Source: a virus
Lineage: Duplodnaviria; Heunggongvirae; Uroviricota; Caudoviricetes
Length of the DNA stretch: 14,159 nt
Reading direction: 5' to 3' (one strand)
IMG/VR virus record: IMGVR_UViG_2859821903_000004
Span: 1-14,159 of that record
The notes beneath the pieces are model-generated. The model did not search any database. It saw only the letters and a program-made list of their open reading frames with translations, and was not told the DNA's origin. A program made the translations under genes and the position numbers. Below are positions 3,610 to 5,065 of this stretch, one piece after another; within the stretch, counting starts at the first letter, position 1, and each line of letters opens with the position of its first letter.

Positions 3610-3838
3610 GTCTGGTTTCTCTTTTCGCCACTGAGAGCATCCAGTCAAATGGCTCCACAACCGCACCGCAAATTTTGCATCGGACCTGGCGCTCTTTTTC
3701 GTCAACCCGGACAGAGGCGTGATGACAGTATGGTCTTTCCGATGGCTCATAAAGAAAATTAACCTGATTACGCGGGTCATCCTCTTTTACCGGAAATAAA
3801 ACAATATTACTTAACTCATCTTCTGGTTTTATTTCCAT
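3610..3838 (-). pseudogene. N-terminal about 76 codons of a Cys/His-containing (zinc-ribbon-like) phage protein of unknown function, cut by the IS629 right end
   Basis: ATG at 3836-3838 is preceded by GGAGAGGAG. The product MEIKPEDELSNIVLFPVKEDDPRNQVNFLYEPSERPYCHHASVRVDEKERQVRCKICGAVVEPFDWMLSVAKRETR runs straight into IS629 sequence at 3609. The ORF-track entry 3449..3895 is this frame continuing into the IS. Confidence 0.45.
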
Positions 3839-3895
3839 GCTCCTCTCCATTGATGCGAATGCCAGCGGCAATTGAAGCCTGATAGCTAATTTCAC

Positions 3896-4288
3896 TCACA
3901 GCACCACCTCCTGAAAATTCCCCTGATAAAACGCCAGCACGCGCTGCATAACCTCACTCTTCCGGCACTCGCGACAGATTATGTTCTGACGCCTGTCGTA
4001 GCGGCGTATTTCTCCGTCAGGTAACTTTCGAATCAGTGTCGGGTCAGCAGCCTTCTCCGGTGTCTTACGCCATACGCGATACGCCTGCTCTGATGGAAAT
4101 ACCCCGCAATCAGAGAGCCAGACATCACCACTGGCCGCAAGCGCACCAGATAAACGACGAATAGCGGTCTTACTGACACCCGTTTTATCTGCCAGTTGTC
4201 GAAAAGTTTCTCGTCCGCTCAGGCGCACGAGTTCCACAATGCGCGCCTTCACTTCTTCCCGCTCTTCTGGTGTAAATACTTTTGCCAT
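3896..4288 (-). CDS. Phage HTH-containing protein of unknown function (about 130 aa)
   Basis: ATG at 4286-4288 with a strong SD (GGAGG, 5-nt spacer). HTH-like segment ETFRQLADKTGVSKTAIRRL and a C-terminal CRECRK motif. It follows the upstream gene after a 15-bp gap. Confidence 0.65.
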   Translation of the reverse strand: MAKVFTPEEREEVKARIVELVRLSGRETFRQLADKTGVSKTAIRRLSGALAASGDVWLSDCGVFPSEQAYRVWRKTPEKAADPTLIRKLPDGEIRRYDRRQNIICRECRKSEVMQRVLAFYQGNFQEVVL

Positions 4289-4303
4289 AGGTGCCTCCGG
4301 CAA

Positions 4304-5065
4304 TCACTTTTCCGATGCAACACGGCGAGAAATATCAGTAATCTGTCGAACAATATCCCGGTGCTTGTTCAGCTCCCGCAGCGCGGCGCAGACACGCTCC
4401 CACTTCTGGAGATGACTTTTCGCCCGACGCAGTTCGCGGTTTGCCATATGCAGCGATGGTAAAACCAGGTCATCCGCTCGCGTTTCGGTGAACAATGGCA
4501 GCGACTGCACAATGTCCGCCACCGTTTCTGTTTTAATATCTTCCTGTGTTGCAGCCTCCTGTACTGGTAATGCAACACCTGCGGGCTGAGGAAAGGCCTT
4601 ACCATCAGTTTCCGCTACCGATGCTGCTTTCGGCTCTGCTGGTAAATTATCGCCCGGTATGCAGTAACGAAATTTACCGCCCTGATTTACGCGAATCAGA
4701 CGACCTTTGCTGATTGCCATTGCCAGCGTTGAAGCCACTTTGCGTGATGTGGTACCAGACAATGTAGCCAGCTCATCAGCCGTTTGTGGTCCGCGTTGTT
4801 CAATCGTCGCGGTTAAATCGCACTCTGAGATTTTCGCTACTGTTGCTGTGGTGGTTTCTTCCGGCAGTTCTGCCTGCGCTGGCTGTTCCTGCTGAACGTT
4901 GTTATCAGCCACACGCCGGGTGTACGCGCTTTTATCAACAAAACCAGCCTTTTTCAGTTCCCATAGTTCGTTCAGCACTTCTTCACGACTGATATCAAGT
5001 CGCGCAGCAAGTTCTGTGGATGTGGCTTTTCCCATTGCTTTCAGTGCGTCAAAAACAGTTTCCAT
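4304..5065 (-). CDS. Phage protein with two winged-helix-like segments and a C-terminal basic coiled-coil-like tail; function unknown (253 aa)
   Basis: ATG at 5063-5065 preceded by GGAGG. Two HTH/winged-helix-like stretches ([28 protein letters not shown] and [32 protein letters not shown]) separated by an acidic/Ala/Thr linker. It sits just downstream of the replication genes. Confidence 0.7.

Follow-up and report, generated by a model that had tools for sequence, protein, structure and literature searches.

The subject of this analysis is a cluster of small genes read from the minus strand of a 14,159-nt stretch of Caudoviricetes DNA (IMG/VR record IMGVR_UViG_2859821903_000004, positions 1 to 14,159; hereafter 'the window'). 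An initial annotation, made from the letters alone, had suggested that the two larger genes of the cluster, encoding proteins of 253 and 130 aa, were selectively preserved next to broken replication genes. We identified them as ydaW (4304..5065) and lygF (3896..4288), which are ordinary accessory genes located after the replication genes, in the slot of the phage lambda ren gene. Taken as a whole, the best explanation is a Rac-type operon with ordinary accessory/counter-exclusion genes whose reading frames have survived neutral decay; we hold this account to be probable, if well short of certain. In the window these are routine prophage genes with no sign of purposeful keeping by the Shigella remnant, and as such they matter little. 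The ydaW–lygF pair itself is one of the most frequent in prophages of E. coli, and two leads, homology to Ren and the blocking of a retron toxin, RcaT, point towards counter-defence, an idea that a specialist could test cheaply.

The region 3608..8586 holds the early-right operon of a lambdoid prophage remnant of the Rac type, read from the minus strand; the host is almost certainly Shigella, probably S. boydii. Past the repressor, the gene order is cro, ydaT, replication initiator, replicative helicase, an open reading frame (ORF) of 53 aa, ydaW, lygF and a gene for a 118-aa protein.

YdaW, LygF and their relatives

All four minus-strand ORFs placed by the initial annotation were found again (at 3608..3838 for the one described as zinc-ribbon-like). 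Its remark that no characterised family could be recognised does not stand for the two larger genes, since both belong to Pfam and PHROG families (DUF1627/YdaW and DUF977/LygF). Both genes are already known, and RefSeq names their products DUF1627 and DUF977 proteins.

The 253-aa protein matches the Pfam model DUF1627 (PF07789) with 320.9 bits against a cutoff of 28.1 (1.5e-96; protein residues 88-242, model positions 1-155), and it matches PHROG 630 over its full length (5e-126). Residues 1-151 of YdaW from the Rac prophage of E. coli K-12 are 97% identical to the window protein. As in the window, the K-12 gene comes immediately past the replication genes in an early-right operon of the Rac type; however, owing to the internal deletion in Rac it stops matching at residue 151 and has an unrelated end, whereas window YdaW has its full length of 253 aa but differs by W50R, F103S and V219L. 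The immediate neighbour differs as well: window ydaW follows a DnaB-type helicase gene and the 53-aa ORF, while K-12 ydaW follows the gene of the DnaC-like YdaV.

The 130-aa protein matches Pfam DUF977 (PF06163) with 147.1 bits (cutoff 22.1; 4e-43), the full model being covered by residues 1-126. The LygF proteins of Rac-type prophages and of the Salmonella Enteritidis Sdf region belong to the same family, and the name lygF is used in the Rac and Rac-SA53 records. Window LygF is identical to RefSeq WP_001141102.1, encoded in the prophage of E. coli FDAARGOS_943 (locus L003, our intact comparator), and this 130-aa allele is ~65% identical to the common 140-aa alleles.

PHROG 142, labelled 'Ren-like exclusion protein', is matched both by LygF (4e-43) and by lambda Ren (1.6e-41). 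The two proteins could also be aligned directly: a LygF profile built from 29 sequences aligns with residues 6-93 of Ren, nearly the whole protein (hhalign probability 94.7%, E=5.9e-8), and BLASTP of LygF against Ren gives 1e-7. LygF consists of an N-terminal winged helix-turn-helix (wHTH) domain and a C-terminal motif, ICRECRKSEVMQRVLAFY, both in common with Ren. The CRECRK string pointed out in the initial annotation is a part of this motif, which reads ECRxSxxMxRVLAxY in the two proteins. Both genes are located past the replication genes of a pR-type operon. The differences are a pairwise identity of 27%, an insertion of ~35 residues in LygF between the wHTH domain and the C-terminal motif, and the failure of lambda Ren to reach the Pfam DUF977 model; besides, lygF is the second gene past the replication genes (ydaW being the first), while the lambda order is O-P-ren. 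Judged from these alignments, LygF is a homologue of lambda Ren with an inserted segment. Two further relationships were tried and rejected. Paralogy of YdaW and LygF gave an hhalign probability of 39% only, confined to the generic wHTH, and YdaW as a Ren homologue gave 20%, a generic winged-helix likeness only.

In the AlphaFold2 model of YdaW a three-helix HTH domain (wHTH1, residues 1-48) and a second winged helix (wHTH2, 80-137) are followed by a long C-terminal helix (194-252), with disordered linkers in between; the model has low confidence overall (predicted local distance difference test score, pLDDT, 63.7; predicted template modelling score 0.28), owing to the linkers, and was made from a shallow alignment (85-97% identity). 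Alignment of 39 diverse relatives (20-68% identity) gave the same architecture with hypervariable linkers and a highly conserved C-terminal helix. In the LygF model the N-terminal winged helix is confident, residues 11-70 have a pLDDT above 90, and the C-terminal part is less confident. Foldseek searches of the Protein Data Bank with both models returned generic winged helices only (MarR, ArsR, IclR, ScpB, Z-alpha), none with E <= 0.001, and sequence searches of solved structures had no significant match to YdaW, to LygF or to the 118-aa protein. PADLOC and NCBIfam contributed sub-threshold HTH similarities only; PADLOC models defence, not anti-defence, proteins. A search of the literature on DUF1627, DUF977 and LygF found no functional study.

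YdaW forms a narrow family, with 177 representative clusters in a set of 1.84 billion proteins, but within E. coli it is widespread: the ydaW–lygF DNA has a match in 4176 of 5426 complete genomes (77%), in up to nine places each. Among 80 IMG/VR loci, ydaW was always located directly past the replication genes, which belonged to at least four unrelated module types (DnaC-type, the 153-aa YdaV type, O_7502 with DnaC, and DnaB-type). The gene lygF followed ~19 bp past ydaW in essentially all of these loci that had room for it, and the 118-aa gene came next in about a quarter of the 80. In the window, lygF starts 16 nt past the ydaW stop codon. The same ydaW-lygF order is present in phage Rac, in Rac-SA53 and in Stx phage 75/02. 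We had considered that LygF might always be coupled to YdaW; this holds in the Escherichia clade and fails in distant relatives (~33% identity), where ydaW is again directly past a DnaC-like loader gene and has no Ren-like gene next to it. Two scans for loci of distant YdaW relatives found none, and a scan of genome contigs yielded 6 loci only.

One distant relative, a metagenome-assembled genome (locus L013), has an ORF for a 109-aa wHTH protein (5663..5992 of that locus) between the DnaC-like loader and ydaW. Its C-terminal motif (QECRRNWRGYQIHKIFG) appears Ren-like by eye; the protein had no significant match to lambda Ren or to the profile of LygF, and only a weak one to the YdaW profile (2.7e-06).

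Retention or chance survival of the reading frames

The observation behind the initial annotation was confirmed in part. Both larger genes have open frames and good ribosome-binding sites (GGAGGTAATTTTAATG for ydaW and GGAGGCACCTATG for lygF), and the product of lygF is identical to that of the L003 gene. Alignment of L003 with window positions 3608..7897 (99.2% identity, 33 mismatches and two 1-bp gaps) located the lesions of the neighbouring genes, which were defined against L003 and four close relatives. The initiator gene has lost 1 bp within an A8 run (near 7172-7179), and at 5444 the helicase gene has a stop codon, TGA, in place of TGG. The zinc-ribbon-like gene is cut by an insertion sequence (IS), as described below. 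Breakage of these three genes had been stated before and was confirmed, except that the helicase was inactivated by a stop codon and not by a frameshift.

A fourth small lesion of the cluster lies in the ORF between the helicase gene and ydaW. A basic peptide of 33 aa (5130..5231) had been listed as a possible gene; it turned out to be the frameshifted remnant of the 53-aa ORF (5071..5231, minus strand), with the same start, left after shortening of a poly-G tract from G6 to G5. The 53-aa ORF is annotated in RefSeq as a hypothetical protein in relatives (loci L002 and L095) and has no match in PHROG, Pfam or NCBIfam. Its start overlaps the helicase stop codon, and its normal stop is 5 nt ahead of the ydaW ATG, within the Shine-Dalgarno sequence; the ORF could therefore be translationally coupled to ydaW. 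We compared the poly-G tract (near 5175-5180) in the window and in loci L001-L003 and L015-L017. Intact copies have G6 or GGAGGG, the window and L015 have G5, L001 has G10, and L003 combines G6 with a downstream nonsense codon. These differences in length among near-identical prophages, which put the ORF in or out of frame, may be homopolymer assembly errors.

Family-wide ratios of nonsynonymous to synonymous substitution rates (dN/dS) are ~0.15-0.20 for ydaW and ~0.15-0.16 for lygF, which characterizes both as real phage genes under purifying selection. Purifying selection across a family is, however, a separate question from retention in the window remnant. For the latter we used differences private to the window, that is, absent from five close relatives; there are 12 in 4290 bp. 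The highest density was found in ydaW, with three changes, all missense (W50R, F103S and V219L), and no synonymous one. The helicase gene has three synonymous changes in addition to the stop codon, and lygF has two synonymous changes located 3 bp apart, which may represent a single event. All of the other 51 unique sequences have W50 and F103, and 50 of 52 have V219; even where family members are only 20-68% identical, W50 is conserved to at least 90%. Window YdaW has thus not kept these conserved core residues, having R50, S103 and L219 instead. The exact 253-aa variant is named only in S. boydii records (three contigs). Private changes that are missense only, two of them at invariant residues, look like relaxed constraint and not like retention. 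The description of the 253-aa gene as intact is hence right for its frame and has to be qualified for its protein.

It had been proposed that the cluster was kept by selection for a regulatory, exclusion or anti-defence benefit to the host or the remnant. We consider such retention quite unlikely. The purifying selection acting on the family, the open frames with their ribosome-binding sites, the identity of LygF to the proteins of intact relatives and an anti-toxin activity reported for YdaW are all in agreement with it. Still, the probability that three point lesions in 4290 bp miss the 1155 bp of ydaW and lygF is (1-1155/4290)^3, or ~0.39, so that the intact frames are compatible with chance. 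The missense-only changes of ydaW, described above, argue against retention, as does the state of the cluster, in which both the small ORF ahead of ydaW and the zinc-ribbon gene past lygF are broken. Homologues are disrupted elsewhere too, K-12 ydaW being truncated and lygF being split by IS2 in strain RMDEC364 (L002); together with the homology of LygF to Ren, these disruptions go part of the way towards what the initial annotation itself had named as evidence against its view. Both genes, moreover, lie behind an intact DicA-type repressor, and no promoter of their own was detected. The scan for promoters and terminators (3500..8300) found no promoter at all, not even that of the operon or those of the cro/repressor intergenic region; having missed the operon's own promoters, it says nothing on an internal promoter or on expression in the lysogen.

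An opposite interpretation of the same ydaW changes, that W50R, F103S and V219L are an adaptive retuning of the protein in the S. boydii lineage, has very little probability in our opinion. Three nonsynonymous changes against zero synonymous ones and the presence of the exact variant on three S. boydii contigs would be in line with adaptation, but positive selection cannot be shown from so few changes. Two of the three changes affect the residues that are invariant in all other unique sequences, W50 being kept family-wide, and in the AlphaFold2 model they replace large hydrophobic residues by Arg or Ser within or beside helices of the two wHTH domains. In addition, the operon around ydaW is visibly decaying.

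The pattern of broken replication genes can arise in another way. In a trapped prophage, which cannot excise, replication started at the phage origin is lethal to the host, and the cells that survived had mutations in O or P (Hayes et al. 2013). If such a loss of replication function is selected for, this pattern is expected without any selection on neighbouring genes. The replication genes of the window may be the ones under selection, for loss; the open frames of ydaW and lygF look like survivors of a short neutral decay, and ydaW has probably already been damaged by its missense changes. Several points weigh against this account of neutral survival. The ratio of three missense to zero synonymous changes is not decisive (Fisher test against the other genes, calculated by hand, ~0.08 one-tailed). 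For LygF, dN is 0 in comparison with L003, and a constraint on lygF is possible. Also, the promoter scan cannot settle whether ydaW and lygF are expressed in the lysogen.

Possible functions of the pair

Ren was defined genetically as the lambda function that escapes lambda's own Rex exclusion, and lambda ren is dispensable for replication. A protein interaction of Ren with Rex was detected in published two-hybrid assays. For YdaW, the K-12 gene came out as a blocker of RcaT, the toxin of retron-Sen2, when overexpressed, and was validated in a second test, alongside racC, dicC and yfjH (Bobonis et al. 2020 preprint). This activity was that of the truncated K-12 YdaW, overexpressed, while window YdaW is full length.

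YdaW and LygF would be made only after release from the repressor, on a transcript shared with the replication genes. They may act as small winged-helix accessory/counter-exclusion proteins and keep abortive-infection systems from stopping the early development of the phage, in parallel with the action of lambda Ren against Rex and of overexpressed K-12 YdaW against RcaT. By analogy with these two cases, we put forward protection from abortive infection by early-expressed winged-helix proteins as a tentative role, to which we assign somewhat less than an even chance. The exclusion or anti-defence role of the initial annotation is accordingly plausible at the level of the gene families, where LygF is homologous to Ren and K-12 YdaW blocks RcaT; the part of the proposal that does not carry over is retention for this purpose in the window. 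The RcaT result, having been obtained with a truncated and overexpressed protein, could be indirect, and one group regards Ren as replication-related (Thomason et al.); both facts count against a protective role.

The description of ren by the latter authors as 'likely involved in DNA replication' would fit another function, in which YdaW and LygF are sequence-specific DNA-binding proteins that serve the phage's own programme instead of counter-defence, either as replication accessories (at the origin or in helicase loading) or as transcription regulators of the downstream nin-like region. We judge this, the main rival of a protective role, to be doubtful. All three folded domains of the two proteins are winged helix-turn-helix domains, nearest to MarR, ArsR, IclR, ScpB and centromere-binding proteins; K-12 YdaW is among listed predicted transcription factors; and ydaW stays directly past the helicase loader gene even at ~33% identity. 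On the other hand, the cassette is found behind four unrelated replication modules, which speaks against a dedicated partner among the replication proteins. No repeats that could serve as binding sites were found near ydaW and lygF, the only candidate being an iteron-like pair within the initiator gene. The dispensability of lambda ren, mentioned above, also speaks against a replication accessory. Further, ren was not needed for P-lethality or replicative killing (Hayes et al. 2013).

A stronger form of the protective role can be formulated as well, in which ydaW-lygF would be a widespread two-gene counter-defence cassette whose winged-helix proteins directly neutralise RcaT (YdaW) and Rex-like systems (LygF). 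This form appears unlikely to us; tuning of ydaW translation by slippage at the poly-G tract of the 53-aa ORF, which may be added to it, is weaker still.

Operon layout and the rest of the window

Upstream of ydaW, the window contains an intact gene for a DicA-type repressor (8179..8586, plus strand) and, on the minus strand, a P22-Cro-like gene (7875..8102) and ydaT (7469..7891), all three recognised by Pfam and NCBIfam matches. The replication genes follow on the same strand: the O-like initiator with an HTH_36 domain (6624..7378), identified by Pfam, and the DnaB-type replicative helicase (5231..6634), identified by Pfam DnaB and DnaB_C; alignment to L003 confirmed both, the first as frameshifted and the second as inactivated by the nonsense codon. 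Within the initiator gene there are two iteron-like 17-nt direct repeats (GGTGCAACTCCTGCRCT), 24 bp apart (7009..7049), an arrangement like that of the lambda origin located within gene O.

The gene next to lygF (3608..3838, minus strand) is represented by its first (5') 77 codons. As seen from the junction sequence, codons 78-118 were removed by the IS element abutting 3608; in L003 the 118-aa gene is intact (11067..11423). The 118-aa protein belongs to PHROG 1621 (3e-56). The TFIIB zinc ribbon model (PF08271) matches it with 21.5-22 bits, below the Pfam cutoff of 29. Its sequence has C38, H39 and H40 and, further on, C55-x2-C58 as putative ligands, suggesting a possible zinc ribbon of the C-H...CxxC kind. 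The initial annotation, which had a zinc-ribbon-like protein cut by IS629, was accurate as to an IS3-family element making the cut, while the zinc-ribbon match is sub-threshold.

The element itself (2299..3607, plus strand, ~1.31 kb) has orfA at 2354..2680, orfB at 2677..3567 and an ALIL frameshift pseudoknot at 2635..2751 (116 bits); it matches the IS3-family transposase model NF033516 with 304 bits. The 1.31-kb unit recurs in 4322 genomes. The size and ORFs fit IS629, and we call the element IS629-like. Related prophages have acquired IS elements independently in the same place, either at lygF or just past it (window 3600..3900; L001 4762..5990; L002 5456..6684). In strain VL40 an IS2 is located just 3' of lygF, in RMDEC364 an IS2 is within lygF, and in the window the IS629-like element ends at 3607; the 3' region of lygF may be a hot spot of IS insertion.

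Directly to the left of this element, which truncates the prophage, an ipaH-family type III effector gene (1..1763) is present as two ORFs, one with leucine-rich repeats (1..564) and one with the NEL E3-ligase domain (711..1763); the gene may be interrupted. On the far side of the operon, Rfam searches detected isrK (10191..10267) and a C4 antisense RNA (10292..10379), both on the plus strand and both within the ORF of a Rha-family regulator (10140..10979). These RNAs may form a P1/P7-type antisense immunity element beside an antirepressor-like gene. The prophage has undergone heavy rearrangement. Its region 9400..14159 is dense in IS elements: transposase ORFs of the IS1 type lie at 9520..10023 and 12300..12767, and ORFs of the IS3/IS600 type at 11441..12277 and 13323..14159.

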